The notes: a model not told the origin generated them from the sequence alone. A stretch of DNA of 64,000 nucleotides from an uncultured Gammaproteobacteria bacterium (GCA_964431805.1 CAYSKV010000005.1:3435-67434), one strand, 5' to 3'. Shown: positions 4,235 to 62,786, numbered from the stretch's first letter. Numbers and translations: made by a program.

Positions 4235-4326
4235 ACTTATATTTTAGCTTTTTAGGGAGTTTAAGTAAAGTTAATGTGATAATATGTTTTATTTTTATAT
4301 TTTTTATTATTTAGACACAAAATCTG

Positions 4327-4534
4327 TTGACAAAACGCTTAATTTTTGCTAAAATAACATTAGATAATACAAAATTATATTATCTAAAAACAAAAACAAA
4401 AAACATGACTAAAAATAACGTCAATTTGGCTAAAAATAGCTCAAATTGGTTTAAAATATTAGAAAAAAGCAATGGACAGGAGTTTATCTAATTTAAACTC
4501 TTTTATGTCCATTGCTTTTTTAATAAACAAAAAT
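4327..4534 (+). promoter_or_regulatory. Promoter (TTGACA 4327-4332, 17 nt, TAAAAT 4350-4355) plus ~175-nt structured leader ending in a terminator-like hairpin (4469-4515, then T6). Copy A of a duplicated cassette.
   Basis: Consensus -35/-10 hexamers with 17-nt spacing. Hairpins: TTAGATAATA/TATTATCTAA, and GCAATGGACA...TGTCCATTGC with an inner GAGTTTA/TAAACTC stem followed by TTTTTT. About 88% identical to the minus-strand copy at 59002-59205. Confidence 0.6.
4405..4491 (+). CDS. Candidate leader peptide (uORF, 28 aa) MTKNNVNLAKNSSNWFKILEKSNGQEFI
   Basis: An ATG-initiated frame is conserved in leader copy B (MIKNNANLAKNSINWFKILEK...). The stop lies inside the loop of the terminator-like hairpin. 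No SD, but most genes here lack one. Confidence 0.3.
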   Translation: MTKNNVNLAKNSSNWFKILEKSNGQEFI

Positions 4535-7516
4535 ATGAAAATAACAAAAAACAAAAACAAAAAAACAAAAAAAATAATCTTTCCTCTCTTAATTTTCGTT
4601 TTAATTTTTAACTTAGCCCCTTCGGTTGTTCGAGCAACTACGGCCTATGACAGTATTAATGGTATTTATACTGATGATTTTGCTAATAACTCGGGCGTGC
4701 CGACTAGAAGTTATATTAATGTTAATACCGCTACCGGCGCACTTCAATTAACTAATGCCAGCAATCAAAGCAGTTTCGCCACTCCTTATAAAGACAACGG
4801 TTATGCTATAACTGGCTCAATTGCCCCTGTATTACTAGCTAAATGGGGCACGATTTCTCTTGATGCAAATATACCAGAAGGAACTACTCTTAAAATTCAA
4901 GTAATGGATGATAGCAATACTCTATTTTCTGATACAAACTTGCCTGGCAATTCTTCTGGCGTAGAAGCAACTAACATAGATATTAGTAATGTTGATATTT
5001 TACATTGCGCCCCGGGTCTTAATTGTAATAAGCCGTATGTTATAAAAATTAAATTTTTAATGACTACTACTGATACTGCTGTCACGCCGACGATTAATAA
5101 TTTAACTGTTACCTGGGCTACAACTCAAGGTGATTTGTCCGCCGCTGAACCAGACACTACTTCAGCTTGGCCATCATATAACGTTAATCAGCAAAGTACC
5201 AACCATGTACCTTTTGCTAATTCTCAAATTTACCCAACATTTAAATGGGCTAGCGCCCAATTTGAAAGAGATTATGGCGTTGAGGGAATATATATTCTAG
5301 ATGATAAAATTTTTGGTTATACCGGCTATTACGGCGGATATATGTTTGCTCAAGACAAAGATACCGGAGAAGACCTTTGGAGGCTTCCATATAATAGATG
5401 CAGCGGACCAAGAGGATCTATCAGCAGTAACGGAACTTTTTATGGCACTGACATAGGTTGTGATGGTTTTTATGTAATAGACACTAACACGGGCCAATTA
5501 AAATGGCTATATAATTTTTATGGTGGACATGGTTCTGGGCAGACGATTATAGGAAGTGATGGAACTATTTATACTGATAGAAATTCTGGGGGTAATGGTA
5601 CCGATATTTTTTACGCTTTTAATCCTGATGGTTCAATAAAATGGACAAAAAATATTATTCTTTCAGAAACTGTTGGAGATAGGTTAAGTATTAATTCATT
5701 ATTTATGAGCTCAGATGATACTATCTATTTGCCTTTTTCCACTTATGATTCTAGTTACAACAGCACAAACCATGGCAAACTTGTTGCAATTAATTCCGAA
5801 GATGGTTCAACAAAATGGACATATAATACTGGTGATTTAGGATGGCGTGCAATAATAGATAATAATGGAACTATTTATGTTACTTCTGATTATCAATATA
5901 ATGCTACATTAGGAGATTATGTAGCTACAGAAAAAAAGATTTTTGCTATTAACCCGGACGGAACTTTAAAATGGGAAAGAACTACAGGAGAAAATACAAA
6001 ACAAGGTTATAATAGTTTTTCATTAAGAAATGATGGGATACTGCTAGCGCTTAGGGGCCAAAATGAGTGGAACGAACCAAACAAATTAGAAGCGATTAAT
6101 ACTAGTGACGGATCTTTGCTTTGGTCAGAAGAAACTACTGCTTATGATATCTCTTTTTCTGATAATAACAACGGATTTGTCTATGCGGATGGCGTTGCCG
6201 GCGCCAATGCAAATGATTATTATACAAGAGTTAATTATTTTGACTCAAACGCTAATTTAAAATGGAGAGTTGCTTACCCATATAATACTGATCCAAACAA
6301 TTCCGGTGGTTATGTTTATTATAGTTTAGGAAGTATTGTCCAAGATGAACGCGGTTGGATTTATGGTTCGCTTGGTAAAGGTGCTTATGACAATGACACC
6401 GATTGGAATGCTTTACCTGAAGAAATGTTCGCTAAATCTTTTGCTTTAGCTCCTTGGACTTTAAGTAATCAAACCCTGCCATATGATCATCAACAGCAAA
6501 GAGATACTTTAAATTTTAGCGTTGTTTCTTCGATGCTTGAAACTAACCCTGTTTTCTCCGGCGACAACAAAGTGCAAGTAATAATGGATAATGGCGATAA
6601 AATAGCTCTTAGTTATAGCGGTTTAGATGCTAGCGGCAACAGCCTTTGGACAGGTTCCTATACTATACCGGCCGATGCAGTCGCTGGCACGCACACTTAT
6701 ACTATTGAAGCCGCGCAAAGTTATCTGCAAACAGATATTACTACTCATTTTGCTTCTGCTCCAACAGAATCAAACAACACCGGTATTACTGCTACAGGCA
6801 CTTACTATATTTATGAGCGTGGCGGCACTGTAATATTGTCTCCTACTACTCTCGCGCCAACTACACCCAACAATACTGCAAATATAGCTACGCCTAACGC
6901 TAACAGCGAACCAGCGTCTAATTCAAGTCAATTAAACTCAACCGAATCACATACTGAACAAAATCAAACGCAAAACCAAAGCCAAGCCACAACAATTTTT
7001 AATCATAATCAATTTGTTCCTTTAAGCGACAATGAAAAAAAATTATATTCAACTATTATAGAAAGTGATGAAAATTTAGATGATCAAATAAAATATGCTA
7101 TTGCTTATTTTATTAATTTTGGCACTCCTAATACAAAACACTTAGGCGCGGGAGAAAGAGCTGGCGTGATAAAATCTTATAAATCCGCTTTTAAAAAATT
7201 GCCGAGATCAACGGCAGACTGGGAAGATATAATAAAAATCGCTAACGGTATTGCTCCTATTGAAAGAAGTCAAAACGCTGAAGATCAAGCTAAAAAATTC
7301 TTTAAAACAATTTATCAAAGAGAGGCTGACATTACTAACGTTTATGACAATAACGCTATCATAATAATGGCTTACGGTTTACGCCCAACCGCTCGTGATT
7401 TAAATAGCGAGCTATCTTCTATAAAAACTTTTAAAGTAATATTCGGATTTATGCCGCAATCAACTGAACAATGGAATATGATAAAAGCTATTGCTTATAG
7501 CGGAGTGAGTAAATAA
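4535..7516 (+). CDS. Giant secreted protein: signal peptide, PQQ/BamB-like beta-propeller repeats, Thr/Asn/Gln-rich linker, conserved C-terminal domain
   Basis: The ORF-track frame 4472-7516 was trimmed to the ATG at 4535 (MKITKNKNKKTKKIIFPLLIFVLIF...VRA signal peptide) because the upstream part is the leader hairpin. Repeated ..G..KW.. blades: TGQLKWLYNF, DGSIKWTKNI, DGSTKWTYNT, DGTLKWERTT, DGSLLWSEET. The C-terminal ~165 aa are homologous to the C-terminus of 55666-59001. Confidence 0.85.
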   Translation: MKITKNKNKKTKKIIFPLLIFVLIFNLAPSVVRATTAYDSINGIYTDDFANNSGVPTRSYINVNTATGALQLTNASNQSSFATPYKDNGYAITGSIAPVLLAKWGTISLDANIPEGTTLKIQVMDDSNTLFSDTNLPGNSSGVEATNIDISNVDILHCAPGLNCNKPYVIKIKFLMTTTDTAVTPTINNLTVTWATTQGDLSAAEPDTTSAWPSYNVNQQSTNHVPFANSQIYPTFKWASAQFERDYGVEGIYILDDKIFGYTGYYGGYMFAQDKDTGEDLWRLPYNRCSGPRGSISSNGTFYGTDIGCDGFYVIDTNTGQLKWLYNFYGGHGSGQTIIGSDGTIYTDRNSGGNGTDIFYAFNPDGSIKWTKNIILSETVGDRLSINSLFMSSDDTIYLPFSTYDSSYNSTNHGKLVAINSEDGSTKWTYNTGDLGWRAIIDNNGTIYVTSDYQYNATLGDYVATEKKIFAINPDGTLKWERTTGENTKQGYNSFSLRNDGILLALRGQNEWNEPNKLEAINTSDGSLLWSEETTAYDISFSDNNNGFVYADGVAGANANDYYTRVNYFDSNANLKWRVAYPYNTDPNNSGGYVYYSLGSIVQDERGWIYGSLGKGAYDNDTDWNALPEEMFAKSFALAPWTLSNQTLPYDHQQQRDTLNFSVVSSMLETNPVFSGDNKVQVIMDNGDKIALSYSGLDASGNSLWTGSYTIPADAVAGTHTYTIEAAQSYLQTDITTHFASAPTESNNTGITATGTYYIYERGGTVILSPTTLAPTTPNNTANIATPNANSEPASNSSQLNSTESHTEQNQTQNQSQATTIFNHNQFVPLSDNEKKLYSTIIESDENLDDQIKYAIAYFINFGTPNTKHLGAGERAGVIKSYKSAFKKLPRSTADWEDIIKIANGIAPIERSQNAEDQAKKFFKTIYQREADITNVYDNNAIIIMAYGLRPTARDLNSELSSIKTFKVIFGFMPQSTEQWNMIKAIAYSGVSK

Positions 7517-7535
7517 AAATTAAAAAAACAAAAAA

Positions 7536-7562
7536 ACACCGCTGTCAAAGCGGTGTTTTTTT
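7536..7562. terminator. Bidirectional intrinsic terminator
   Basis: ACACCGC-tgtcaaa-GCGGTGT flanked by an A-run and a T-run, between convergent genes. Confidence 0.7.
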
Positions 7563-7580
7563 ATACAAAATTTATAATCT

Positions 7581-23308: not shown

Positions 23309-23321
23309 ATATTTATTTTAA

Positions 23322-23370
23322 TCTACCCCAACCTGATTATTTTTGCAAATCTCGGCGTAAACTTTAATGC
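23322..23370 (-). pseudogene. Orphan 3'-terminal fragment (last ~16 codons plus stop) of a GH1 beta-glucosidase gene
   Basis: 23330-23370 matches 23785-23825 at 39/41 nt. In the same frame it reads IKVYAEICKNNQVGVD*, versus VKVYVEICKNNQVQLG* at the end of the intact gene. Confidence 0.7.
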
Positions 23371-23449: not shown

Positions 23450-23713
23450 ATGAAAATAAATGATTTAACAAAAGCGTTGGGTCTGGGCGAAGTTAATGAA
23501 AACACGGCAAGAACGTTGTTGACAATTGGGTTTATTATGGGAAGGGCTCAAGAAAAAACCGATAGAGCTAAAGAAATCAATCCGAGTTTAGCTCACGATG
23601 TCTTTCCTGCTCATGTTCGCGCAGTAATAGGACCACGCCCCGCTTTGACAGGAGGATTTTTCACAAAAGAAATGGCGGAAACAATTATAAGATTTAGAAT
23701 TATACCAGATTAA
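23450..23713 (+). CDS. Hypothetical protein (orphan cassette gene)
   Basis: 87 aa. Own promoter TTGACT(23381)-16-TATAAT(23403), SD AGGAGG, and own terminator ACCTGCT-tacacga-AAGCAGGT-T7. Confidence 0.6.
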   Translation: MKINDLTKALGLGEVNENTARTLLTIGFIMGRAQEKTDRAKEINPSLAHDVFPAHVRAVIGPRPALTGGFFTKEMAETIIRFRIIPD

Positions 23714-23772: not shown

Positions 23773-24990
23773 TTAACCTAACTGAACCTGATTATTTTTG
23801 CAAATCTCGACGTAAACTTTAACGCTTGGACGTGGCGTTCTTTTAAAAGTCTGTCGATTGACTTCGTATAAACCGAACTTTTGCGTCCAGCCAGCGGCCC
23901 ATTCAAAATTATCTAAAAGCGACCAATATGAATAACCCCTTATATCAACGCCTTTTTCAATTGCTAAATGAATATTTTTTAAAGATTCTTTAATAAACCA
24001 ACTTCTATATTTATCTTGACCGTCAGAAACGCCATGTTCGGTTATATAAATCGGCTTATTGTATTTTTTTAAATCGCGTAAAACAAAATAAATACTTTTT
24101 GGATAAAGCTCCCAGCCGAAATCAGAAACTATTTTATTTTCATTTTTATTAAAACCATAATTAATTACATTCCTGCGATAATGATTTAAACCGATAAAAT
24201 CCTGATAATTTTTTATTCTATTTAAAAAATAAAAATTCCACCACCAATCAGATAATTTTTTTAAAATAATATTTACGCATCTATTTTTATAGGCTTCAAA
24301 ATAAATATTATGTTTAGATATACCGATTTTAGCTTTGGGCGAAATCACTTTAATTTTTTTGTAAACTGACTTATGAACTTTTATTAAATTATTAAGCACG
24401 CGCCAATAAGCCAAAGGATTTTTTTTATTAGGCGGAAAAACACCAGTTAAATAAGAATAACCCGAATAAATATCCGGCTCATTTAAAGTCGTCCAAAAAA
24501 TTACATCATTTTTAAATTCGTTAACCATTTTTTCTGCATAACGGCAAAAATATTTTTCCATTTTACCAGACTCCCAACCGCCTAGATTTTTTAACCATAA
24601 GGGTATTGGATAATGCCACAAAGTAACAAACGGTTCAATATTATTTTCTTTTAATAACTTTATAATATTCCCATAACGATTAATCGCTTGAATATTAAAT
24701 TTTCCCTCTTCTGGTTCAATGCGCGACCATTCAATAGAAAATCGATAAGAGCTTACACTTAATTCTTTCAAGCATTTTAAATCATCAACAAACGATTCAA
24801 ATGAATTACAAGATAAACCACAAATATAATCTTCTAAATTTTTATTTTGCTTTTTTAACTGCTTAACCCTAGCTTCTGATTTTTCCCATTCACTCCAATC
24901 ATTAGTAATATTGCCTTCAACTTGATAAGCCGAGGTAGAGGCGCCCCAAAGAAAGCCTTTAGGAAATTTTAAAATTTGTTGTTTTGACAT
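23773..24990 (-). CDS. Glycoside hydrolase family 1 beta-glucosidase
   Basis: 405 aa. FLWGASTSAYQVEG, acid/base TLNEP, nucleophile YITEHG. Confidence 0.9.
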   Translation of the reverse strand: MSKQQILKFPKGFLWGASTSAYQVEGNITNDWSEWEKSEARVKQLKKQNKNLEDYICGLSCNSFESFVDDLKCLKELSVSSYRFSIEWSRIEPEEGKFNIQAINRYGNIIKLLKENNIEPFVTLWHYPIPLWLKNLGGWESGKMEKYFCRYAEKMVNEFKNDVIFWTTLNEPDIYSGYSYLTGVFPPNKKNPLAYWRVLNNLIKVHKSVYKKIKVISPKAKIGISKHNIYFEAYKNRCVNIILKKLSDWWWNFYFLNRIKNYQDFIGLNHYRRNVINYGFNKNENKIVSDFGWELYPKSIYFVLRDLKKYNKPIYITEHGVSDGQDKYRSWFIKESLKNIHLAIEKGVDIRGYSYWSLLDNFEWAAGWTQKFGLYEVNRQTFKRTPRPSVKVYVEICKNNQVQLG

Positions 24991-33127: not shown

Positions 33128-33219
33128 GGGGCGAAAGCCCCACCCCGACATAGCAGGTTCTCTATCGCACAACATACAAAAAAATAAAACCCCACCTTCG
33201 GCGGAGTTTTATTTTTTTG

Positions 33220-37181: not shown

Positions 37182-39251
37182 CTATTTCTTACTTTTTATT
37201 TTGGCTAAAACTAGCTTTATTTCATCCCAGCTATAATCTTCGCCCAATATCTCGTGAATTGGCGTTAATTTATCCGTGCCAGCAGTCTTAATCGCGGCTA
37301 TAATTTTTTTCTGCCGCTCTAGCTTTACTAATTTATCAATCTTAACTCCTAAACCTTTTTCTATTAAAAAACATAAATGGCTAATAATCGTATCAATCGT
37401 TAACTCTCGCGCTTCGGCGATTTTTTCTAAACTTAATCCTTTATTCCATAATTCCAAAGTTTCTAGTTGTGTTAACTTAGTTGATAGGCTTGAAGTTTTC
37501 TTTTTGTGTTTTTCTTCAAATTGAACTTTTTCTACTTCGCCCATATCTTTTACTAAACAATTATCGCACTTAGCGCATTTATCGGCTTCGAGCTCGCCGA
37601 AATAATCTAAAATATATTTTTGCCGACAACCAAAATGATAAATATAATTTTCCATTAAATCTAACTTTTTATAAGCATGCTTTAATTTGTGTTTCAAGGC
37701 CGCGAAGTCTAATTTAACTTCATCTCCCTCTACCCGTTTTAAAATTTTTATTTCTGTGCCGCGAAACGGCGGAACATATTCAGCCAATTCCAACTCTTTT
37801 AATTTTTTAATTAAACGCGCCAAAGTATCTTTCTTAACTTTTAAAATATCTGCCATCTCTTCTAAATTAGCATACATACCTTTCTCTAGTTCGTCACCAT
37901 ATTTATTTATTAATTGTTCCAAATTATTGCGCTGGCTTTTACTTTTAAATTTTTGACTTTCAGTTTTCAGCTTTTCACTTTTAACTTTTATATACGCTTG
38001 CCCAACGCGATCATGCGAGCGCGCTATATAACCCTCGCGTTCTAAAACTTTTAAACCAGTACCAACGGCCATTTCTGGAACTTTATCCGATAACATTTCC
38101 GCAATTTCGGAATAAGTAATTAAAATCGTGTCGGTCTCGTAATTCTTTAAAATTTCATACATTTCTAAAATCATTTCTGGTGGCGGATTATCGCCTTTTA
38201 TAAAAAATTCTTGTAAATAACGATCGCGCGGACTGTAAAGTAATAAACAAAAACTTTGTTTGCCATCACGGCCGGCTCGACCGGCTTCTTGGTAGTAAGC
38301 TTCAATCGTGCCCGGCATATCATAATGAATAACAAATCTAATATCGCGCTTATCAATACCTAAGCCAAAAGCATTAGTGGCAACGATAACTTTAGCTTTG
38401 CCTTTCATAAAATTTTCTTGCACCCATTTTCTGTCTTCCGCTTCCATGCCCGCATGATAACTAACAGCTTCAATATTATTGCCCAATAAAACTTGCAACA
38501 ATTCATCGGCGCGCGACCTTGTACCAACATAAATTATGCCGGTTCCGTCAGGCGCGCTAGAAATTGCGTCTAAAACAAATTGCGGTTTACGCGAATCCTG
38601 AGTATTAATCACGCCAAACTGCAAATTCGGTCGCGCGAAACCAGTAATAACTAAACTCGGATTAATTAAACCTAATTGTTTTATAATGTCATCTCTAACT
38701 TCTAGCGTGGCCGTAGCGGTTAAAGCTAAAACTATAGGATTGCCTAAATTTTCAATCGCGCTTTTCATTTTTATATAACTTGGTCTAAAATCGTGACCCC
38801 ATTGACTAATACAATGCGCTTCGTCAACCGCGAATAAACTCACTTTAATTTGTTTTAAAGCAGCTATAAAGTCGGAGCTATAAAATCTTTCTGGCGCGAT
38901 ATAAAGCAACTTGTATTGGCCGGCTTTAACCGCTTCTATCCTATTAGCAGTTTCAGTTTGGCTGATGGAAGAATTTATAAAAGTGGCTGGTATGCCAATT
39001 TTTTGTAAACCATCAACTTGATCTTTCATTAAAGCAATTAAGGGCGAAATTACTAAAGTAACGCCGTCTAAAACTAAGGCTGGTAATTGATAACATAGCG
39101 ATTTGCCGCCGCCAGTCGGCATGATTACTACCGTAGAAATTCCAGCTAAAATATTATCAATTACTTTTTCCTGGCCAGGTCGAAATGCCTTAAAACCATA
39201 ATGAAGTTTAAGCAGTTCTAAAAGTTGTTGTTTTTTGTTATTTTCAGCCAT
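37182..39251 (-). CDS. recQ: ATP-dependent DNA helicase RecQ with C-terminal helix-turn-helix extensions
   Basis: 689 aa. FRPGQ, MPTGGGKSLCYQLPA, DEAHCISQWGHDFRP, zinc-binding C..C..C..C, RQC region. Confidence 0.9.
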   Translation of the reverse strand: MAENNKKQQLLELLKLHYGFKAFRPGQEKVIDNILAGISTVVIMPTGGGKSLCYQLPALVLDGVTLVISPLIALMKDQVDGLQKIGIPATFINSSISQTETANRIEAVKAGQYKLLYIAPERFYSSDFIAALKQIKVSLFAVDEAHCISQWGHDFRPSYIKMKSAIENLGNPIVLALTATATLEVRDDIIKQLGLINPSLVITGFARPNLQFGVINTQDSRKPQFVLDAISSAPDGTGIIYVGTRSRADELLQVLLGNNIEAVSYHAGMEAEDRKWVQENFMKGKAKVIVATNAFGLGIDKRDIRFVIHYDMPGTIEAYYQEAGRAGRDGKQSFCLLLYSPRDRYLQEFFIKGDNPPPEMILEMYEILKNYETDTILITYSEIAEMLSDKVPEMAVGTGLKVLEREGYIARSHDRVGQAYIKVKSEKLKTESQKFKSKSQRNNLEQLINKYGDELEKGMYANLEEMADILKVKKDTLARLIKKLKELELAEYVPPFRGTEIKILKRVEGDEVKLDFAALKHKLKHAYKKLDLMENYIYHFGCRQKYILDYFGELEADKCAKCDNCLVKDMGEVEKVQFEEKHKKKTSSLSTKLTQLETLELWNKGLSLEKIAEARELTIDTIISHLCFLIEKGLGVKIDKLVKLERQKKIIAAIKTAGTDKLTPIHEILGEDYSWDEIKLVLAKIKSKK

Positions 39252-39356
39252 TTGACAATTATTATTTAATAAACTAATTTAAGATTAACACAAGACAAAA
39301 ATTAAGACAAAAAATCTAAAATAAACCGATCTTTTAACAACTTACAAGGAGAGAAT

Positions 39357-44827: not shown

Positions 44828-46417
44828 TTATATCAAACTTTTTACCATATAACTATTCTCTAATCTATGGCCTAACTTTCTATAATAGCCGCGCACACCG
44901 ATACCAGAAATCACAGCGATTTTTTTATATTTTTTTTGTTTAGCAATTTTTTCCGCTTCCTGCATTAACATTTTTCCTAAACCTGCATGCTGAATTTTTT
45001 TATTTTTTCCAACCGGCACTAATTCTCCGTAAATATGCAACTCACGAATCATGGCCGCTTTATTTTTTTCTCCTAATCTTAACCGGCAAAAACCATAAAG
45101 AATATCTTCTTTTTTATCAACCGCCTGAAAAAAATATTCTACTCCTTTTGAGGCTTTATATTTTATAACTTTCAACTTTAAACTTTCAACTTTAAACTTT
45201 TTTTCTCCTGCTTCCCGGCATCTAATACATTTACATTTCACGCCCTGGTCTTTCATAACCTGCCGTAAATTAGTTATCATATTGCCGGCGATAATTGATT
45301 CTCCTGGGATATCCCGAATTAATCTAATAATACGCACATACGGCGGCACAATTTCTTTGCATTCCACAATTAAATTTTGTAAAACTTTATCCGAATACGG
45401 TTTATACTTTCCGGCTCGCCACCATTTATATAATAAACTACCGCGCGTTACTACGGTCGGATAAAATTTTAATTGATCTGGTTGAAATCTTTCTTCAGAA
45501 AATAATTTTTTAAACATAGCCAAATCTTTTTTCGCCGTCGCGCCGGGTAGCCCTGGCATAATATGATAAGTTACTTTAAAGCCATAGTTTTTTAACATCT
45601 CGGTCGCTTTAACGGTTTCAGCTACGCCATGTCCGCGTTTATTTAATTTTAAAATTTTATCATCAATCGCTTGCACGCCGAGTTCTACGCGCGTCGCGCC
45701 TAGTTCGCGCATTTCTAATAGTTCTTTATTATTAATATAATCCGGACGCGTTTCTAAAGTTATGCCGATAATTTTGTATTTAGCGCTTTCATTTTTTTTC
45801 TGCTCTCCAAATAATAACTTTTTTAAAATCCCAATTTTTATTTTTGAATCTAACTTTTGAATTTTAATTTTTTCATTTTTTTCTTTTTCAAAATTATTTG
45901 CCGCTTTAAAGCATTGCGTGATATACCAATATTTATAATTTTCCGGTAACGCCGACCAGGTTCCACCAATAACAATTAATTCAATTTTTGTTGGTTCGTG
46001 TCCGTTAGCTTCTAAAGCGCGCAAACGCAATTGTACTTGTTTGTATGGATCATAATTACAACGAATGGCGCGCATGACCGCCGGTTCGTTAGATAAATAA
46101 CTTTGCGGCACATCTTTTTCGGTTGGGCAATAAGCACATTCGCCTGGGCAAGGATATGGTTTTGTTAAAACCGCCACCGGCGCGATACCAGACATAGTAC
46201 GCACTGATCGCTTGCGTAAAATTCTTTCTAAATCTGGCTGCCTTTTAGTCATTCCATTTCTATATTCTTTTAAAATTTCTGAATGCGATAAAATAGACCG
46301 GCCGTATTTTTTGGCCAGCTTTCTTTTAACCGCCATTAAGTCAGAGCGCGAATTAATTTTTCCGCTAAGCAATTCATTAATAGCATTTTTTTTATTTTGT
46401 TTTTCCTTGATTGTCAT
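44828..46417 (-). CDS. elp3: Elp3-like radical SAM + GNAT acetyltransferase (tRNA U34 carboxymethylation family)
   Basis: 529 aa. SGIAPVAVLTKPYPCPGECAYCP (CxxxCxxC), a radical SAM barrel, and a C-terminal GNAT with QHAGLGKMLMQEAE. Confidence 0.8.
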   Translation of the reverse strand: MTIKEKQNKKNAINELLSGKINSRSDLMAVKRKLAKKYGRSILSHSEILKEYRNGMTKRQPDLERILRKRSVRTMSGIAPVAVLTKPYPCPGECAYCPTEKDVPQSYLSNEPAVMRAIRCNYDPYKQVQLRLRALEANGHEPTKIELIVIGGTWSALPENYKYWYITQCFKAANNFEKEKNEKIKIQKLDSKIKIGILKKLLFGEQKKNESAKYKIIGITLETRPDYINNKELLEMRELGATRVELGVQAIDDKILKLNKRGHGVAETVKATEMLKNYGFKVTYHIMPGLPGATAKKDLAMFKKLFSEERFQPDQLKFYPTVVTRGSLLYKWWRAGKYKPYSDKVLQNLIVECKEIVPPYVRIIRLIRDIPGESIIAGNMITNLRQVMKDQGVKCKCIRCREAGEKKFKVESLKLKVIKYKASKGVEYFFQAVDKKEDILYGFCRLRLGEKNKAAMIRELHIYGELVPVGKNKKIQHAGLGKMLMQEAEKIAKQKKYKKIAVISGIGVRGYYRKLGHRLENSYMVKSLI

Positions 46418-46463
46418 TCTCTTAAATGTTATTATTAAAACATATAAATTTAACCATAAAATT

Positions 46464-47594
46464 ATGAAAAAAGCAATTATAATCGCCTGTTTTGCGCTTT
46501 TACTTCCCTTAGCGGCCTCGGCTTATAGCGTTAAAAATGGCGATTCAGTTTATGTGCCAAAAGACGAAATTATTGAAGGCAACCTTTATGCCGCTGGCTC
46601 AAGCTTGGTTATTGACGGTAAAATTACCGGCGACATAATTTGCGCCGGACAATCTATTAATATTAACGGCGATGTAGCCGGTGATGTTATTTGCGCCGGA
46701 CAATCTATTAATATTAATGGCAAAATCGGTGGTAATTTACGCTTAGCCGGTAATACTATTAATTTCAACGGACAAGCAGAACGAAACGGCATTATTATAG
46801 GCGCTACAGGCATAACTTCGGCTAGCTCTACTATTGGTTGGGACTTATTAATCCTCGGCAATATTTTTGAATTAAATGGCAAAGTCGGCCGCGACTTATA
46901 TGGTAGCGCTGGTAAAGTTAATTTAGCCGGACAAATCGGAAAAAATATTAATCTTGATTTTGGCATGCAAAATAATAATGAAAAACAATTAGCAATAACT
47001 AGCACAGCAAAAATTAACGGCCAACTAAAATATAAATCAAATAAAGATGCAGCCATTGATGCTGGCGCGGTTATTACTGGAGAAACAATTCATAATTATC
47101 CAACCGCAGTTACTAAAAAATCAAACTTAGCTAATTTAGGTTGGTGGTGGGGAAAATTAATTTCACTTTTTTCAGCTTTAGTTATTGGTTTAGTTTTAAT
47201 TAGTTTTTGGCGAGAACAAATTATTAAAATTACCGACTTAATATTGGCTAAAGCCGGCGCTTCGCTAGGCTGGGGAATTTTAGCTTTACTATTAACACCG
47301 ATTATCGCCATTATTTTATTAATTACCATTATTGGCATTCCTTTAGCTTTAATTTTAATGGCGCTCTGGTTAATCGCAATGTATGTTAGTAAAATTTTAG
47401 TTGGTATTTTAATTGGTCGCGCTATTTTATCAAAATACTGGCTCAAGCAAAAAGATTCTTTAATTTTGGCTATGATTTTTGGTATTGTAATAGCATATTT
47501 AATTTTTGCCATTCCATTTATCGGCTGGATTATGGCCTTAATGGCGATGCTTTTTGGATTAGGCGGCATTATGCTAGCATTAAAAAAAGCTTAA
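46464..47594 (+). CDS. Secreted/membrane protein with bactofilin-like (polymer-forming, beta-helix) repeats and C-terminal multi-TM domain
   Basis: Trimmed to MKKAIIIACFALLLPLAASA (the track start at 46212 is antisense to elp3). Repeats GDIICAGQSININGDVAGDVICAGQSININGKIGGNLRLAG. 4-5 C-terminal TM. Confidence 0.65.
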   Translation: MKKAIIIACFALLLPLAASAYSVKNGDSVYVPKDEIIEGNLYAAGSSLVIDGKITGDIICAGQSININGDVAGDVICAGQSININGKIGGNLRLAGNTINFNGQAERNGIIIGATGITSASSTIGWDLLILGNIFELNGKVGRDLYGSAGKVNLAGQIGKNINLDFGMQNNNEKQLAITSTAKINGQLKYKSNKDAAIDAGAVITGETIHNYPTAVTKKSNLANLGWWWGKLISLFSALVIGLVLISFWREQIIKITDLILAKAGASLGWGILALLLTPIIAIILLITIIGIPLALILMALWLIAMYVSKILVGILIGRAILSKYWLKQKDSLILAMIFGIVIAYLIFAIPFIGWIMALMAMLFGLGGIMLALKKA

Positions 47595-52509: not shown

Positions 52510-52846
52510 AAAAAAGCTTCCCATCTCTTAAACATAGCTAAACTATGCTTAAGGGACGGAAAGCCTTGCTTTTCGTGTTGCCACCCTTATTCCGAAAACA
52601 AAAAAACGCTTTTGAGCGTTCTATTTTCGCTCATCGACTCATGCTTCGTTTTTAACGAAAGACATCGATTATCCTATGATTACGGAGGAAACCGAGTTAA
52701 CACTAACGCATTAACCACCCTTTAAGTTCAGGCCCAATCCCAGCGTATCGCCGGGACCCGAACGGGTTTTACAATTTGTTTACCCCTGTTAAATCCGCGA
52801 AGCGGAAATTTGCCAAAGGCCAATTTATTTAACGGGGTGAAGTTCT
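52510..52846 (-). promoter_or_regulatory. T-box-type leader (antiterminator 52588-52551, terminator 52564-52516 plus U-tract 52515-52510, Stem III-like hairpin 52620-52605)
   Basis: AAGGG-UGGCAAC-ACGAAAAGC-aag-GCUUUCCGU-CCCUU matches the T-box antiterminator architecture (A1 helix, 7-nt UGGN bulge, A2 helix). Its 3' half re-pairs into a 21-bp terminator with one mismatch, followed by UUUUUUGUUUU. Promoter TTGACA(52880-52875)-16-TATACT(52858-52853). Confidence 0.65.
52782..52844. repeat. Structured element closed by CCCC(T)GTTAAAT/ATTTAACGGGG, copy 1
   Basis: Plus strand CCCCTGTTAAAT-[CCGCgaaGCGG]-[AAATTTGCCaaaGGCCAATTT]-ATTTAACGGGG. The 20-mer TTATTTAACGGGGTGAAGTT (52825-52844) recurs exactly, inverted, at 54913-54932. 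Confidence 0.6.
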
Positions 52847-52868
52847 AAAATCAGTATAGCAAAAATAA

Positions 52869-53888: not shown

Positions 53889-54003
53889 AAAATTTATCTT
53901 ATCTAATAACCCTTAAAAAAACAAGCTGACTTTACAAAATTCTCTTAAAAGTGCAAAATATAAGGGACTTACAAAATAATTAATAACCGGCTATAATATA
54001 ATT

Positions 54004-54408: not shown

Positions 54409-54928
54409 CAAAAAATTATCAATTTATATTTTTTCTTTTTTAGCAATTAGTTTTCTCTTTGCTAAAAAAGCTTTAGCGGTTTGTCCCATTTGTACGATCG
54501 CGGTTGGCGCTGGCCTTGGTCTTTCCCGCTGGTTAGGAATTAACGATACCATAACCGGCCTATGGATTGGCGGACTTATCGTTTCCATGATTGTCTGGAC
54601 CGAAAGTTGGCTTGATAAAAAAAATATTCGCTTTAAAGGCAGAATTTTTGTGGACATACTAGTCTATTATCTTTTTACTATTATTCCACTTTATTATACT
54701 GGCATCATCGGCAATCCATTAAATACTTTATGCGCTTGTGGAATAGATAAATTACTTTTTGGCATTGTTGCTGGCAGCTCGGCTTTCTGGTTCGGAGCTA
54801 GTTGGTATTTTTTTCTTAAAGAAAAAAATAATGGACGCGCTCACTTTCCTTTTCAAAAAGTTGTTATGCCAATTACGCCGATTATTATTTTAAGTATAAT
54901 TTTTTATTTTTTAACTTCACCCCGTTAA
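54401..54928 (+). CDS. Novel 5-6 TM membrane protein with CPIC and CAC motifs
   Basis: 175 aa. The start overlaps the upstream stop by 8 nt (ATGAATAA). AVCPICTIAVGAGLG lies in a TM and NTLCACGIDKL at a TM boundary. Confidence 0.6.
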   Translation: MNNKKLSIYIFSFLAISFLFAKKALAVCPICTIAVGAGLGLSRWLGINDTITGLWIGGLIVSMIVWTESWLDKKNIRFKGRIFVDILVYYLFTIIPLYYTGIIGNPLNTLCACGIDKLLFGIVAGSSAFWFGASWYFFLKEKNNGRAHFPFQKVVMPITPIIILSIIFYFLTSPR

Positions 54929-55051
54929 ATAATTTGTTTAAACAAATTAAGGCTTGGATAATTGGCGAGATAATTATATTATTAATAAATTGAATATTAT
55001 TTAAAAAATTTTATATAATCAAAATAAAAAATCAAGCCTTATTTAACGGGG
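54913..55051. repeat. Structured element closed by CCCCGTTAAAT/ATTTAACGGGG, copy 2
   Basis: CCCCGTTAAAT-[AATTTGTTTAAACAAATT palindrome]-AAGGCTTG ... CAAGCCTT-ATTTAACGGGG. The left arm overlaps the last codons of the membrane-protein gene. Confidence 0.6.
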
Positions 55052-55605: not shown

Positions 55606-55665
55606 TTTTTAAAAATTATATAAAAAAACTCTGGTTTAAAGCCAGAGTTTTTATTTTTATTATCT

Positions 55666-58600
55666 TTATCTTTGAAGACCGCTATAAGCTATACCTCTAA
55701 TTATATTCCAATCTGTAGCATTAACTGGGCTATGTTCATAGATCCATTTGAAAGTTGTGATAGCGGTTTGTTCGCTGATTAGGTTTCTGGGTCTGGGCAT
55801 TAAACCATAGGCCATAACCATAATAGTGTTTTGGTCTAGATTGTTAGACATAACAGGGTTGCGGCCATAGACTCGGGAGAATTCTATTTTAGCCTGTTCC
55901 TCAATATTAGAATTTCTCTCAATTGGCCATCTACCATTGGCTATTTTCAATAAATCAGACCATTCAGCTTCGCTATTAGGCAGTCTAGAGTAGGCTTTGT
56001 AGTAGGAGTTAATGACTGCGGCTCGTTCGCCTGAACCTAATCTCAGGGTTGATTTAGTACCATAGACTATGAAATTATTGATAGTTGATCTCTCAATATC
56101 AGTTATAGTTTTATCTAAATTTAGAATAGTCTGATATTTAATTAATCCTTGTTGTTCTTTGGCTAAATCAGCCTGAATAGCTAGATGAGTTAATAATTGA
56201 TTTTTATCATTAGTAGCTAATATTTGAGCTTCGGTTAGAATCTGTTCTAATAGTTCATCATTGTTATTATTAGCTGAATTATTATTGTTGTTATTATTGT
56301 TTTGATTATTACCTGGGTTGTTGTTTCCTGGATTGCCGTTATTGTTGTTCCCATTATTTCCTGGGTTGTTGTTATTGGGTGGAGGCAAAGGGTTACCACC
56401 AGAAACAATCATAATACTGTCTGAATAAACATCTGTTATATTGCCTAGAGCGTCCTTAAATTTAACATAAACTGTTTTAGTGCCAAAACCGCTGTCTAAC
56501 GTCCAGGTTATGGCCGAGGTATATGTTCGCCAATCGCAATCAGTAAACTCTTGATTATTACAAACCATCATCTGACTAACAGCGCCGGCATCATCAGTGG
56601 CTTGAAAATTTAAAATTACATCATGAGTAATTATTTTTTCTTCTCCGGAGTTAATAGTAATTTGACCGGTTAAAACCGGAAGGCCGAGACGGGTTAAAAA
56701 AGTAACTTCAGTATTATTATAAGAAGTAAAAAATCCGCCAACTAATATTTTATTATCGTTTTGAAAAAAGACGGAATATACTCCGGCATAAAAAAGCCCT
56801 GCTAAACCAGTTCCAGAATTAAATGTTTCATCTAAGCTGCCGTCGGAGTTAAGTCGAACTATATTATTTACTGCAGTGCCATTATAAGAAGTAAAATATC
56901 CGCCAATTAATATTTTACCATCATCCTGAAGTGACATTGTTTGTATGTATGGATAATCGTTTCCCAATCCTGTGCCAGAACTAAATGTTTCATCTAAGCT
57001 GCCATCGGAGTTAAGTCGAACTATGTAGTTTGCCATAACTCCATTATAAGAATTAAAACCTCCACCCACTAATATTTTACCATCATTTTGAAGGGCTATT
57101 GAACATACCGCCGGCCAATCTCCGCCGAAACCGGTACCTTGATTAAAAGTTGTATCCATACTTCCATCAGTATTTAGTCTAACTATATTGTTTACTTCGG
57201 TACCATTATAAATAGTAAAATATCCACCAACCAATATTTTATCGTCATTTTGTATTGTAACAAAATAAACTCTTTCCCAGTCTCCGTTAAAACCCTCCTC
57301 CATATTAAAACTTGCATCTATACTGCCATCAGAATTAAGTCTAGCTATATTATTAGCCAAATTTCCATTATAAGAACTAAAATCTCCACCAACTAATATT
57401 TTCCCGTCACTTTGCAAGGCTATAGTATTTATATAATTATCAAATCCTAATCCGCCAGAATTAAAAGTAGTATCTAAACTACCATCAGAGTTAAGTCTAA
57501 CTATATTATTCGCCGTAGTGCCGTTATAAGAAGTAAACCATCCACCAACTAATATTTTACCATCACTTTGAAGGGCTATAGTATTCACACAATCATCAAA
57601 ACCTAACCCGCCAAAATTAAATGTTTCATCCAAACTACCATCAACATTGAGTCGAGCTATATAATTTACCGCAGTATCATTATAAGAAGTAAAACCTCCA
57701 CCCACTAATATTTTCCCATCGTCTTGAGTAGTTACAATACTAATATAACCATTAAAACCTTTAGCGCCTGGATTAAAGCTTGTATCTAAACTACCATCTG
57801 AGTTAAGTCTTTCCAAATAATCTCCGCCTATTATTATTTTATTATCAGATTGAATAGATATATCTCTAACCCACATCCAAGAATAAATTTTAGAGGGAGA
57901 GGTAAATGTATTATCTAAAGTTCCATTACTATTTAATCGGGCTATTTTTTTTATAGTAGTACCATTATAAGAATCAAAATCTCCTCCTATTAATATTTTA
58001 CCGTCTGATTGAATAGCTACACTAGCAGTCCTAATAGTAAAACCTGTTCCTGCGTTAGCATGAAAGTCCGTATCTAAACTTCCATCTGTATTAATTCTAG
58101 CTATATATCCAATACTTGTTCCTCTGTATGTGTCGATTCTCATGCCAACGATAATTATTTTCCCATCAGATTGTACTGCTATATCTAAAATTTCTGGATA
58201 ATATGAACCCGACAACCCAGTACCGGGGTCAAAAGTTGTATCTAAGGTTCCATCAGCATTTAATCTGGCTATTTCGTTTCTGGTTACTCCGTTAAATGTA
58301 GTAAAAAGTCCCCCAATAACTATTTTATTATCGTCCTGAATAAATATTGATTCTGGACCCCACCAATTAAAACCTGTGCCAATATTAAAACTTGTATCTA
58401 AAGTACCATTTGTATTTAATCTAGCTATTCTGCTTACTGCTGTACCATTATAAGAACTAAATTGCCCGATAACTACTATTTTCCCATCACTTTGTAGGCC
58501 CATTCCCATGACATTACTATTAAACCCAACACCAATATTAAAATCTGTATCTAAACTACCATCAGTATTTAATCTAACTATGTGATTTACTGTTGTGCCA

Positions 58601-59001
58601 TTATAAGAAGTAAAACCTCCTCCAACTAATATTTTACCATCACTTTGGAGGACAATTGTTTCTACTTTATAATCACCATTGTCATTAAAGCCTGTACCGA
58701 TATTAAAATCTGTATCTAAACTACCTTCAGTATTTAATCTGGCTATACAATTAGCCGGTGTGCCATTATAAGAATTAAATTCACCGCCAATTAAAATTTT
58801 TCCATCACCTTGAATAACTGTTGTATTTACTCTATAATCAACTCCTTTAAATTCACCATTTATAAAATCCGAGTCTAGTCGCCCATCAGAATATATATAA
58901 CTTTGAGCTTTGGTTTGGTTGGCGAAGGAGGATAGAAATAATAAGGTTAAAATAAATAAGATTATGCCTTTGGGCATTTTTTTGTTTTTTGTTATTTTCA
59001 T
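55666..59001 (-). CDS. Giant secreted protein: signal peptide, ~13 delta-60-type beta-propeller repeats, Ig-like region, poly-Asn/Gly linker, conserved C-terminal domain
   Basis: Trimmed to the ATG at 58999-59001 (MKITKNKKMPKGIILFILTLLFLSSFA). Repeat unit ARLN.DGSLDT.FN.G.GF......IA.QSDGKILVGG.F.SYNG. Linker PPNNNNPGNNGNNNNGNPGNNNPGNNQNNNNNNNN. The C-terminal ~190 aa are homologous to the end of 4535-7516. Confidence 0.85.
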   Translation of the reverse strand: MKITKNKKMPKGIILFILTLLFLSSFANQTKAQSYIYSDGRLDSDFINGEFKGVDYRVNTTVIQGDGKILIGGEFNSYNGTPANCIARLNTEGSLDTDFNIGTGFNDNGDYKVETIVLQSDGKILVGGGFTSYNGTTVNHIVRLNTDGSLDTDFNIGVGFNSNVMGMGLQSDGKIVVIGQFSSYNGTAVSRIARLNTNGTLDTSFNIGTGFNWWGPESIFIQDDNKIVIGGLFTTFNGVTRNEIARLNADGTLDTTFDPGTGLSGSYYPEILDIAVQSDGKIIIVGMRIDTYRGTSIGYIARINTDGSLDTDFHANAGTGFTIRTASVAIQSDGKILIGGDFDSYNGTTIKKIARLNSNGTLDNTFTSPSKIYSWMWVRDISIQSDNKIIIGGDYLERLNSDGSLDTSFNPGAKGFNGYISIVTTQDDGKILVGGGFTSYNDTAVNYIARLNVDGSLDETFNFGGLGFDDCVNTIALQSDGKILVGGWFTSYNGTTANNIVRLNSDGSLDTTFNSGGLGFDNYINTIALQSDGKILVGGDFSSYNGNLANNIARLNSDGSIDASFNMEEGFNGDWERVYFVTIQNDDKILVGGYFTIYNGTEVNNIVRLNTDGSMDTTFNQGTGFGGDWPAVCSIALQNDGKILVGGGFNSYNGVMANYIVRLNSDGSLDETFSSGTGLGNDYPYIQTMSLQDDGKILIGGYFTSYNGTAVNNIVRLNSDGSLDETFNSGTGLAGLFYAGVYSVFFQNDNKILVGGFFTSYNNTEVTFLTRLGLPVLTGQITINSGEEKIITHDVILNFQATDDAGAVSQMMVCNNQEFTDCDWRTYTSAITWTLDSGFGTKTVYVKFKDALGNITDVYSDSIMIVSGGNPLPPPNNNNPGNNGNNNNGNPGNNNPGNNQNNNNNNNNSANNNNDELLEQILTEAQILATNDKNQLLTHLAIQADLAKEQQGLIKYQTILNLDKTITDIERSTINNFIVYGTKSTLRLGSGERAAVINSYYKAYSRLPNSEAEWSDLLKIANGRWPIERNSNIEEQAKIEFSRVYGRNPVMSNNLDQNTIMVMAYGLMPRPRNLISEQTAITTFKWIYEHSPVNATDWNIIRGIAYSGLQR

Positions 59002-59205
59002 ATTTTTGTTTATTAAAAAAGCAATGGACAAAGAGTTTAAACTGATTAAACTATTATCCATTGCTTTTTTTCTAATATTTTAAACCAATTTATGCTATTT
59101 TTAGCTAAATTGGCGTTATTTTTTATCATGTTTTGTTTTTATTTTTTGATAATATGATTTTGTATTATCTAATATAATTTTAACAAAAATTTTGTATTTT
59201 GTCAA
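59002..59205 (-). promoter_or_regulatory. Promoter (TTGACA 59205-59200, 17 nt, TAAAAT 59182-59177) plus structured leader and terminator-like hairpin (59064-59021, then T6). Copy B of the duplicated cassette.
   Basis: Hand alignment to 4327-4534 gives ~88% identity with 3 small indels. The hairpin GCAATGGATA...TGTCCATTGC keeps pairing through a C-to-U change, so C-G becomes U.G. Confidence 0.6.
59046..59129 (-). CDS. Candidate leader peptide (uORF, 27 aa) MIKNNANLAKNSINWFKILEKKQWIIV
   Basis: Same frame and the same first 21 codons (3 substitutions) as uORF A. A 1-nt indel changes the tail. The stop again lies inside the terminator-like hairpin. Confidence 0.3.
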   Translation of the reverse strand: MIKNNANLAKNSINWFKILEKKQWIIV

Positions 59206-59350
59206 TGTCTAAAAATTTAAAAATCACCTATACTTAGCGGGGTTTTATTTTATTGACTTTGATAAATTCTTTCTGTTATACTTACCCAAAGCACATTTTA
59301 AAATTAGTAAACACAGAAGCAACCAAAACGACAAAAACAAGGAGGGCATT

Positions 59351-61135: not shown

Positions 61136-62059
61136 TTATTTTCTCTGCTTTCCATGAAACGCTTTATGTACATCCCTAAGCTGCTGATCAGTAATATGGG
61201 TATAGACTTGGGTAGTGGTAATTGAAGCATGTCCGAGCATAGCTTGCACGCTACGAATATCAGCTCCGTTCATTAATAAATCAGTAGCATAACTATGGCG
61301 TAAAGTATGGGGCGTTACTTCTTTAGTAATTCCGGCAACGCGGGCATATTTTTGCACTAAACGTTGTACGCTCCTTGGCGTCAATCCGTCTTGCTCCTCG
61401 CGGCCGCTAGACGCTTTATCATGGCTGGTAAATAAAAACGGATTGGTGTCTAAGCGAGTTTTTAAATATTCTTCAATCGCTCGCCTAGCGTCGTCAGATA
61501 AAAAAACAATACGCAATTTAGAACCTTTACCACGGACAGTAAATTCATCTTTCTTCAAATTAATATTTTCTATTTTTAATTTACATAATTCAGAAACCCT
61601 AAGACCCGTAGAAAAAAATAATTCTAAAATCGCTCTATCCCTTTTTCTTATAATCTCCGGCAATTCAATTTTTAACGGCGCTTCTAAAATACGCGCTAAA
61701 TCCGAACCCTCTAAAAAATCTACTTGCCTTTGCTCTTGTTTAGCTAATTCCACCTTTTCCGGCTCTAACGATTTAATATCGTTTTTAACTAAATATTTTA
61801 AAAACCCGCGTAAGGCGATTAAATGATAATTTTGTGTATTCTTTTTTAAGCTTTCACTTTTAGAATTACTTAAGCGGTTAAGCCACAATCTATACTTATG
61901 CACTAATTCTTTGCTAATTTTAGCCGTAGAAGTAATACCTGATTCTTTGGCAAAACCGGCAAATCTTTTTAAATAAAACGCATAATTACTAACCGTGGTA
62001 CGTGATAACCCTTTTTCTACCTCTAAATACTCTAAAAAATTGTTTATTGTCTTATCCAT
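61136..62059 (-). CDS. xerC: Tyrosine recombinase, XerC/XerD-like
   Basis: Trimmed to MDKTINNFLEYLE. N-terminal SAM-like core-binding domain. Catalytic R..HxxR..Y: LRHSYATDLL, GHASITTTQVYTH. Confidence 0.8.
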   Translation of the reverse strand: MDKTINNFLEYLEVEKGLSRTTVSNYAFYLKRFAGFAKESGITSTAKISKELVHKYRLWLNRLSNSKSESLKKNTQNYHLIALRGFLKYLVKNDIKSLEPEKVELAKQEQRQVDFLEGSDLARILEAPLKIELPEIIRKRDRAILELFFSTGLRVSELCKLKIENINLKKDEFTVRGKGSKLRIVFLSDDARRAIEEYLKTRLDTNPFLFTSHDKASSGREEQDGLTPRSVQRLVQKYARVAGITKEVTPHTLRHSYATDLLMNGADIRSVQAMLGHASITTTQVYTHITDQQLRDVHKAFHGKQRK

Positions 62060-62262
62060 AGACCCCCACACTTATAATTTATTTACCCTCACTACAAAAT
62101 ATAAGCTAGTTTTATATTAAGTGTGGGGGTATACTTTCATTTTACGACACCTTGCAATTTTTTACAATTTATGTTAGTCTTAGCACATATTTATTAAAAA
62201 ATAACGGTACCCAATCTTGGTCAGGGCTTTGTCCCCCTGTCTCGGTCTGGGCCAAAGACAAC

Positions 62263-62676: not shown

Positions 62677-62729
62677 CTTTTAAAAACTTTTTTAGAAAAA
62701 GTTTTTAATATTTTCAAAAAATATAAGGT

Positions 62730-62786
62730 ATTAATAAAATAATTAATAGCGGGCAAAGCCCTACGGCCATTAATTATTTTATTAAT
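62730..62786. repeat. Perfect 18-bp AT palindrome enclosing a GC mini-hairpin
   Basis: ATTAATAAAATAATTAAT-agcGGGCaaaGCCCtacggcc-ATTAATTATTTTATTAAT, between rpsO and the NYN gene. Confidence 0.6.

Follow-up and report, generated by a model that had tools for sequence, protein, structure and literature searches.

Results

Two giant surface-protein genes begin with the same 5′ module

The 64,000-nt stretch analysed here, called the window throughout (positions 3435-67434 of contig CAYSKV010000005.1 in assembly GCA_964431805.1, deposited as an uncultured Gammaproteobacteria bacterium), carries on opposite strands two genes for giant secreted proteins, gene A and gene B, both of which are preceded by nearly the same module of ~250 bp, composed of a promoter, a leader of ~173 nt with three hairpins (P1, P2 and P3) and the first eight codons of the gene (Table 1). 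Between the -35 hexamer and codon 8, the two copies (4327-4557 on the plus strand and 59205-58979 on the minus strand) could be aligned with 203 matches, 23 substitutions and 3 indels (6 nt), corresponding to 90% identity over the aligned bases; MAFFT and repeat finding yielded the same counts, which reproduce the ~23 substitutions and 3 short indels of a hand alignment made in an initial annotation of this DNA. A block of 52 nt (4506-4557, equivalent to 59030-58979; repeat pair I3) is 100% identical, the region 5′ of it (4327-4505) is 87% identical, and a 3-nt indel at 4503-4505 separates the two. Directly past 4557 the identity drops to 39% (23 columns, gap-free), that is, the similarity stops sharply at codon 8, and on the other side a weak similarity, including TTTAGACA, persists for ~20 nt 5′ of the -35 hexamer. 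The second copy is inverted. Three points of the initial annotation had to be revised: the ATG of gene B is at 59001-58999, the distance between the copies is 54.4 kb rather than 51.5 kb, and the identical stretch flanking the ATG, which indeed continues into codon 8, covers 29 nt rather than ~45 nt upstream of the start codon.

The duplication is neither a chance similarity nor an assembly artefact, a concern raised in the initial annotation. Copy B matched an independent contig holding copy A with an E-value of 2e-78 (blastn), and contigs from five JGI metagenome samples and two Logan runs, which are 99.2-100% identical to the window, independently reproduced both copies. Samples that contain this organism include JGI 3300076266, 3300076298, 3300076591 and 3300076594 as well as SRR12447101 and SRR12447080. 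The three contigs that span one copy together with its flanks all have the arrangement of the window, L003 covering RuvB, the leader and gene A, and L011 and L012 covering gene B, the leader and a radical SAM gene. The Logan contigs break off at 4535, presumably because a k=31 graph should break at a two-copy repeat with an identical block starting at 4506, which makes the repeat a predictable break point in short-read assemblies.

Table 1. Coordinates of the two module copies, their elements and the genes that they precede
Feature	Position	Strand	Description	Basis
Module copy A	4305..4557	+	A/T-rich upstream stretch, promoter, leader, gene A codons 1-8	Alignment with copy B, repeat pairs I1-I4
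Module copy B	58979..59222	-		Alignment with copy A and repeat finding
Promoter, copy A	4327..4355	+	TTGACA 4327-4332, 17-nt spacer, TG 4347-4348, TAAAAT 4350-4355	11/12 consensus matches plus TG extension
Promoter, copy B	59177..59205	-	TTGACA-17-TAAAAT plus TG extension	Promoter scan
P1, copy A	4360..4387	+	Perfect 10-8-10 A/T palindrome, TTAGATAATA-N8-TATTATCTAA, at predicted transcript 5′ end	Folds
P1, copy B	59145..59172	-	One arm mismatch, leaving 7 bp in common with copy A; spacer 1 nt different	
Upstream ORF, copy A	4405..4491	+	28 codons, MTKNNVNLAKNSSNWFKILEKSNGQEFI, then stop	ATG first on predicted transcript
Upstream ORF, copy B	59046..59129	-	27 codons, MIKNNANLAKNSINWFKILEKKQWIIV, then stop	1-nt indel shifts tail frame, stop still in P3 loop region
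P2, copy A	4420..4450	+	13-bp hairpin, one bulge	RNAalifold pair table
P2, copy B	59084..59114	-		RNAalifold pair table
P3, copy A	4463..4521	+	A6-GCAATGGACA...TGTCCATTGC-T6, inner 6-8-bp stem, -28.2 kcal/mol	Folds
P3, copy B	59015..59070	-	Terminator-like hairpin, -25.5 kcal/mol	Folds
Start region	4522..4557	+	Unstructured, A-rich; ATG 4535-4537, codons 2-8 (MKITKNK)	Inside perfect block 4506-4557
Gene A	4535..7516	+	993-aa secreted PQQ-like beta-propeller, 34-aa signal peptide, shared C-terminal domain	Pfam PQQ_2
Gene B	55666..59001	-	1111-aa secreted delta-60/DUF5122 repeat protein, 13-14 repeats, shared C-terminal domain	Pfam DUF5122, NCBIfam delta_60_rpt

The module appears younger than the genes that it precedes

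Apart from the module, genes A and B have in common only their C-terminal domain (~165 aa, 43-47% identical); the propeller parts are unrelated, as initially annotated, with PQQ_2 matches in gene A and DUF5122/delta_60_rpt matches in gene B. In the DNA encoding the C-terminal domain, the two genes are 56% identical overall and 41% identical at third codon positions, and with a pS of 0.73 and a dS of ~2.7 the silent sites are saturated; the identity expected for random sequences at the base composition of the leader is 36%. Judged by these distances, genes A and B themselves are anciently diverged. The module, in contrast, is 71-100% identical throughout, including the promoter spacer (12/17), the hairpin loops and the A-rich linkers. 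Because purifying selection on every nucleotide of a 250-bp segment is implausible, recent recombination is the economical explanation, and the pattern of identity points most likely to a recent non-reciprocal event, either gene conversion or the replacement of one 5′ end by that of the other gene. The 52-nt perfect run has a probability of ~0.02 under uniform divergence and may stem from another, more recent conversion or reflect the strongest constraint acting on the start region.

The C-terminal domain (7020-7516 in gene A and 55666-56160 in gene B; motifs GxGERAxVIxSY...LPxS...W.D..KIANG..PIER) has no counterpart among the models of Pfam and NCBIfam. At least 222 proteins match it, the named ones mostly from Patescibacteria (Falkowbacteria, Parcubacteria, Magasanikbacteria), and many of the proteins that contain it are short and stand-alone (130-290 aa). 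The domain may be a cell-surface anchoring module. Named homologues of the two giant proteins are likewise mostly from Patescibacteria, and the host of the module is an uncultivated bacterium of this group, also known as the candidate phyla radiation (CPR).

A near-consensus promoter is followed by three hairpins

The pair of TTGACA-17-TAAAAT promoters noticed at the outset was recovered by promoter scans of both copies. In each, a TG dinucleotide lies one base 5′ of the -10 hexamer, giving a near-consensus extended -10 sigma-70 promoter, which agrees with the consensus at 11 of 12 positions in both copies and in the case of copy A ranks among the best matches in the window. The transcription start of copy A is predicted near 4362-4363. 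Another TAAAAT, at 4452-4457 inside the leader, was discarded as a promoter, for it is not preceded by a -35 hexamer and the scan gave no strong internal promoter.

Folding of both leaders retrieved the three hairpins that had been reported as common to the two copies, the stem of P1 counting 10 bp in copy A but only 7 in copy B. P1 begins 0-3 nt from the predicted transcription start and could act as a hairpin at the 5′ end of the RNA or as an operator in the DNA; a gene for RNase Y is present in the organism. In P2, a G-C pair of one copy is replaced by A-U in the other, a compensatory change that is accompanied by a U.G to C-G change, and in P3 a C-G pair becomes U.G; the first and the last of these had been noted before, and both are correct. 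The stem of P3 passes directly into a run of six U residues, and the ATG follows after 13 A-rich nucleotides that remain unstructured in the folds, so that in both copies the hairpin is placed between promoter and start codon. Its form, an A-run, a stem and a T-run, is that of the 3′ terminators of the window (for example, 7528-7564, 33177-33219 and 55624-55652), and it is on these terminators that the weak hits of a covariance model derived from both leaders fall. By its sequence, P3 is of the form of a putative intrinsic terminator placed as a 5′ attenuator. A simple terminator scanner skipped P3 of copy A solely through its limit on loop length.

Substitutions between the copies spare the hairpins

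Compared with shuffled sequences, both leaders fold with high stability (z = -9.0 for copy A and -9.2 for copy B). The RNAalifold consensus contains 42 pairs, of which one shows a double change, two show single-sided changes and none is broken, all four substituted stem positions still being paired. As this consensus was derived from the same two sequences, we carried out a separate placement test, in which the same 17 leader substitutions were put randomly on bases of the same kind, with the observed indels kept, in 500 trials. When copy A was changed toward copy B 5′ of the perfect block, the simulated leaders had a mean folding energy of -28.8 ± 5.2 kcal/mol, compared to the observed -44.1 kcal/mol, which none of the 500 trials reached; in the opposite direction, from B toward A, the mean was -26.5 ± 4.7 kcal/mol and the observed value of -47.4 kcal/mol was again not reached (0/500). 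With substitutions spread over the whole leader, A toward B, a single trial of 500 attained the observed -44.1 kcal/mol (mean -25.9 ± 5.3 kcal/mol). Random placement thus costs ~40% of the folding energy. Since the observed differences are non-randomly placed in a way that keeps the hairpins, selection appears to have maintained P1-P3, the differences either avoiding the stems or compensating each other within them. Selection and gene conversion, which the initial annotation had offered as alternatives, would both be at work on different aspects of the module, conversion setting the level of identity and selection the placement of the differences, whereas the notion of a conserved RNA family found no support.

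Translation start and upstream ORF

Most genes in the window have no Shine-Dalgarno sequence and start in A/T-rich, unstructured contexts, and the organism seems to initiate translation mainly without such a sequence; its lack at 4535 is therefore normal here. Sequences of the GGAGG type precede only a few of the ~45 ORFs in the window, e.g., at 14740, 27423, 59351 and 63363. In the IMG gene calls (L010, L011), both genes start instead at an in-frame ATG in the 5′ arm of P3 (4472 and 59061), which adds 20-21 residues. These starts are probably mis-called, a consequence of the open frame, and the module thereby misleads gene callers into starts within the hairpin for both genes. Exact look-ups of proteins A and B with the downstream start returned no match, because IMG uses the upstream ATG. 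Starting at 4535, the protein has a signal peptide of normal length (34 aa), and its mature end (TTAYD...GIYTDDF) lines up with the homologues directly past their ~26-aa signal peptides.

The first 15 codons of gene A contain A-runs of 6, 5, 7 and 8 nt (4535-4580), and those of gene B contain runs of 6 and 7 nt (58975-59001). Slippage in these runs during replication could turn the genes off; among the independent contigs, there was no variation in their length.

On the predicted transcript of each copy, the first AUG opens a short ORF. This AUG lies in an unstructured A-rich linker; from there the ORF crosses P2 and, in either copy, terminates within the apical region of P3. It thus combines an accessible start with an overlap of the terminator-like hairpin. 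Asn and Lys codons are frequent in it, yet the sequence consists of 50% A. The arrangement suggests ribosome-dependent attenuation, as a lead rather than as a finding.

The module is known from two copies in one organism

No third copy was found in the 64-kb window by repeat finding, a covariance-model search or a search with P1- and P3-type patterns, which hit both copies only, with close to zero hits expected (0.01 for P1). The possibility that the segment is a generic dispersed repeat, raised in the initial annotation, and the related possibility of an element resembling miniature inverted-repeat transposable elements or repetitive extragenic palindromes were rejected: there are only two copies, and each is placed and oriented in the same way with respect to a surface-protein gene. 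A search of the whole window against Rfam returned six tRNAs only, and E-value scans of both copies gave sub-threshold microRNA and small RNA (sRNA) hairpin matches on P3 (at most 28.5 bits against gathering scores of 47-180), so that no known RNA family matched at its gathering score. Phage and plasmid collections yielded nothing beyond an A/T-rich match of 24% coverage, and scans of viral contigs gave no match. Exact 20-mer and 22-mer scans of genome and metagenome contig collections, from which the source organism is evidently absent, retrieved only chance matches of 20-23 nt, which fell in one Falkowbacteria, one Bacteroidales and one gammaproteobacterial metagenome-assembled genome and in three coding sequences.

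Among 1.84 billion representative proteins, an exhaustive HMMER search with the leader-encoded N-terminal extension and signal peptide as the query recovered proteins A and B only; the extension by itself scored nothing in a word-indexed protein search; and the search with the C-terminal domain returned short Patescibacteria proteins only, with no pointer to further copies of the leader. The homologues closest to gene A (P0124 and P0125; 53-54% identity) are preceded by unrelated DNA, containing a tRNA in one case and response-regulator genes in the other. With no other copy and no orthologous leader upstream of related genes, covariation analysis of the R-scape type is not applicable. As far as public data go, the element appears to be lineage-specific.

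Genomic surroundings and other repeats of the window

The window is an ordinary chromosomal stretch with 33-39% G+C and six tRNAs, and its genes include those for RuvB, QueA, NusB, IF-2, IMPDH, RNase Y, RecQ, SHMT and TsaD as well as rpsO. Genes A and B are each divergent from a housekeeping neighbour, and each is closed by a bidirectional terminator (7528-7564 for gene A, 55624-55652 for gene B). The start of the RecQ-like helicase gene (39224-39261, minus strand) has 19 nt (TGAAAATAACAAAAAACAA) in common with the starts of genes A and B; we dismissed this match as a low-complexity coincidence in another reading frame.

Several other repeats are present. A direct repeat of 53 nt, with copies 89% identical at 23318-23370 and 23773-23825, consists of the end codons and stop of a GH1 glycosidase gene, copied 455 nt downstream and abutting guaB; an 87-aa ORF lies between the copies on the opposite strand (23450-23713), and the configuration resembles an insertion with a long target duplication. 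Three tandem 51-nt repeats (46610-46762; 61-78% identical to the reference copy) are located inside overlapping ORFs of opposite strands (46212-47594 on the plus strand and 46586-47056 on the minus strand). Intergenic repeats comprise a 37-nt direct pair with 84% identity (53955-53991 and 62718-62754), preceding two plus-strand genes, and a 31-nt inverted pair with 90% complementarity (52821-52851 and 54906-54936), 2 kb apart; both pairs may be shared regulatory or terminator sequences.

Discussion

The duplication of the module, its age contrast with the coding parts, the structure-preserving substitutions and the likeness of P3 to real terminators are established. From these we consider it moderately probable that the module is a lineage-specific 5′ expression unit of ~250 bp for two giant secreted proteins, which has been copied by recombination, has kept its hairpins and resembles an attenuator. 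It is probably organized as a strong promoter with a stabilised leader downstream that contains a terminator. In such a unit, the strong promoter would fire, P1 at the 5′ end would shield the transcript from decay, and P3, ending 13 nt before the ATG, would stop a fraction of the transcripts. Both giant genes would then be expressed by read-through only and would hence be co-regulated, at a level set by a factor that opens or covers the 5′ arm of P3; such a factor would be required because no alternative antiterminator fold was found. The likeliest concrete candidate would be a ribosome translating the upstream ORF of 27-28 codons, which, once it has reached the end of this ORF, would sequester the 5′ arm of P3 and block the terminator, rendering read-through dependent on translation. 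The more specific proposal that the leader is a new, lineage-specific attenuator, in which P3 is overridden by ribosomes on the upstream ORF or by an RNA-binding factor, is a tentative one and rather unlikely as it stands.

Several considerations weigh against this interpretation of the module as an attenuator-like expression unit. The comparison involves two sequences only, and the placement test assumes that, among bases of one kind, substitution is otherwise uniform. The promoter and the transcription start are predicted, as is termination at P3, and P1, instead of forming an RNA hairpin, could serve as a DNA operator. When the leaders were folded without the 3′ arm of P3, its 5′ arm remained unpaired in both copies, providing no antiterminator. 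The ORF was left open by chance in 20% of the simulations, and its differences between the copies are mostly non-synonymous. Furthermore, it would be strange for a constitutive terminator to stand in front of two large genes if read-through were not considerable. Finally, the copy number beyond the 64-kb window is known indirectly only.

Four other explanations of the conserved segment were considered. If the genes in fact started at 4472 and 59061, as called by IMG, the hairpin region would be coding, and its conservation would reflect an extended signal peptide rather than leader structure. The frame is open in both copies and the 3-nt indel preserves it, but it stays open and in register by chance in 55% of the simulations, and the copy differences within the extension are nearly all non-synonymous, in addition to the indel. 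Moreover, a start at 4472 would yield a signal peptide of 55 aa with 34 residues before the hydrophobic core, compared to ~26 aa in the homologues, would place the ATG within a stem of -28 kcal/mol and would leave 110 nt of conserved sequence further upstream unexplained; we regard this alternative as very unlikely. Another way to account for a strong promoter followed ~160 nt later by a genuine-looking terminator is that each module is an independent gene for an sRNA or small protein, with a ~160-nt transcript ending at P3 that may encode a peptide of 27-28 aa, the giant gene being served by leaky read-through. The AUG of the short ORF is indeed in the same kind of unstructured A-rich context as the real starts here, and the gap between P3 and the ATG is too short for a promoter, the scan having given no strong promoter inside the leader either. 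Against an independent gene stand the lack of an Rfam match, the lack of any copy detached from a surface-protein gene, the mostly non-synonymous differences and frame-shifted tail of the peptide and the continuation of the identity through the start codon into codon 8, which means that the copied unit includes the start of the downstream gene; such a gene is quite unlikely. The palindromes could also be DNA operators for a dimeric co-repressor of both genes, RNA folding being incidental. P1, a perfect 10-8-10 palindrome just past the -10 hexamer that overlaps the predicted transcription start (+1 to +27), occupies a classical repressor position and, consisting entirely of A/T pairs, would be weak as an RNA hairpin. 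However, the compensatory change from G-C to A-U in P2, like the wobble change in P3, preserves base pairing and not the bases themselves, which favours a nucleic-acid hairpin, and the U-tract of P3 would be superfluous in an operator. An operator role for all palindromes is decidedly unlikely; for P1 alone it could hold and would still be compatible with the attenuator-like expression unit.

The initial annotation had further suggested that the two copies could support chromosomal inversion, and as substrates of such inversion they would vary surface-protein expression, possibly through a nearby Xer-like recombinase acting on a palindrome such as P1. The copies are inverted repeats with 52 nt of perfect identity, the 10-8-10 layout of P1 is typical of tyrosine-recombinase core sites, and a 311-aa XerC/XerD/XerA-like recombinase is encoded 1.9 kb from copy B (61136-62071, minus strand). 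In Campylobacter fetus, a single sap promoter resides on an invertible segment, and inversion selects the cassette to be expressed. Oppositely oriented surface genes with a conserved 5′ region that extends from upstream into the ORF, and possible recombination between them, are features shared with the module described here, which differs in having a promoter in both copies and 250 bp in common instead of ~600 bp. The vpma genes of Mycoplasma agalactiae and the vsp genes of M. bovis provide a second parallel, a conserved 5′ UTR and signal-peptide start in front of otherwise non-homologous surface genes, in their case with Xer1 recombination sites inside the conserved 5′ untranslated regions (UTRs) (PMC2268961). 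Here, too, a 5′ UTR and N-terminal coding start are common to unrelated surface genes with a tyrosine recombinase nearby. Yet in the mycoplasma systems at least six genes form a cluster that depends on one promoter, which Xer1 inversions relocate, whereas our two genes are 54 kb apart, form no cluster and have their own intact promoters, so that inversion would not change expression downstream. In addition, P1 has a 1-nt difference between its two spacers and a degenerate arm in copy B, and the spacing is wrong for a canonical dif site, which we had tried as an identity for P1. All three contigs spanning a copy, from independent samples, have one and the same arrangement (too few to speak against rare isomers), and the cumulative GC skew declines steadily over both junctions. 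The recombinase, the only one found near either copy, is probably a housekeeping Xer: it scores as such and adjoins rpsO and the genes for tRNA-His and tRNA-Arg, and among the cut-offs it passes only that of archaeal XerA (231 bits vs 220). Inversion is hence extremely unlikely to be the function of the repeats.

The module joins two known kinds of elements, leader terminators and the 5′ cassettes that surface-protein families have in common. Leader-terminator attenuators, including the ribosome-dependent ones of Escherichia coli pyrBI and ampC, consist of a promoter, a leader, an intrinsic terminator and the structural gene. The same order is found here, together with a short leader ORF, translation of which would melt the terminator hairpin; the differences are that there is neither an alternative antiterminator hairpin nor an evident cluster of regulatory codons and that the conservation of the leader ORF is within chance. 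The Lactobacillus slpA gene likewise has a strong promoter and a long 5′ UTR, in which a stable stem-loop stabilises the mRNA of a highly abundant surface protein (PMC10221546). The slpA hairpin has no U-tract and leaves the ribosome-binding site exposed, whereas the largest hairpin of our module is terminator-like; the proteins described here are beta-propeller adhesin-like by sequence, and formation of an S-layer is not implied.

Patescibacteria live attached to host cells and are thought to depend on large surface proteins for this lifestyle. We know of almost nothing on gene regulation in this group. The value of the element is limited by its being known so far from one organism and two copies, but the shared module provides a handle on two candidate attachment proteins and singles out genes that are probably expressed strongly and together. 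If the attenuator proposal is true, the leader would couple the production of both giant adhesin-like proteins of the cell surface to the state of translation in an episymbiotic CPR bacterium and, as far as our literature searches reached, would be the first cis-regulatory leader proposed for surface proteins of Patescibacteria. The two copies also illustrate that regulatory 5′ ends are exchangeable between unrelated genes in these reduced genomes.

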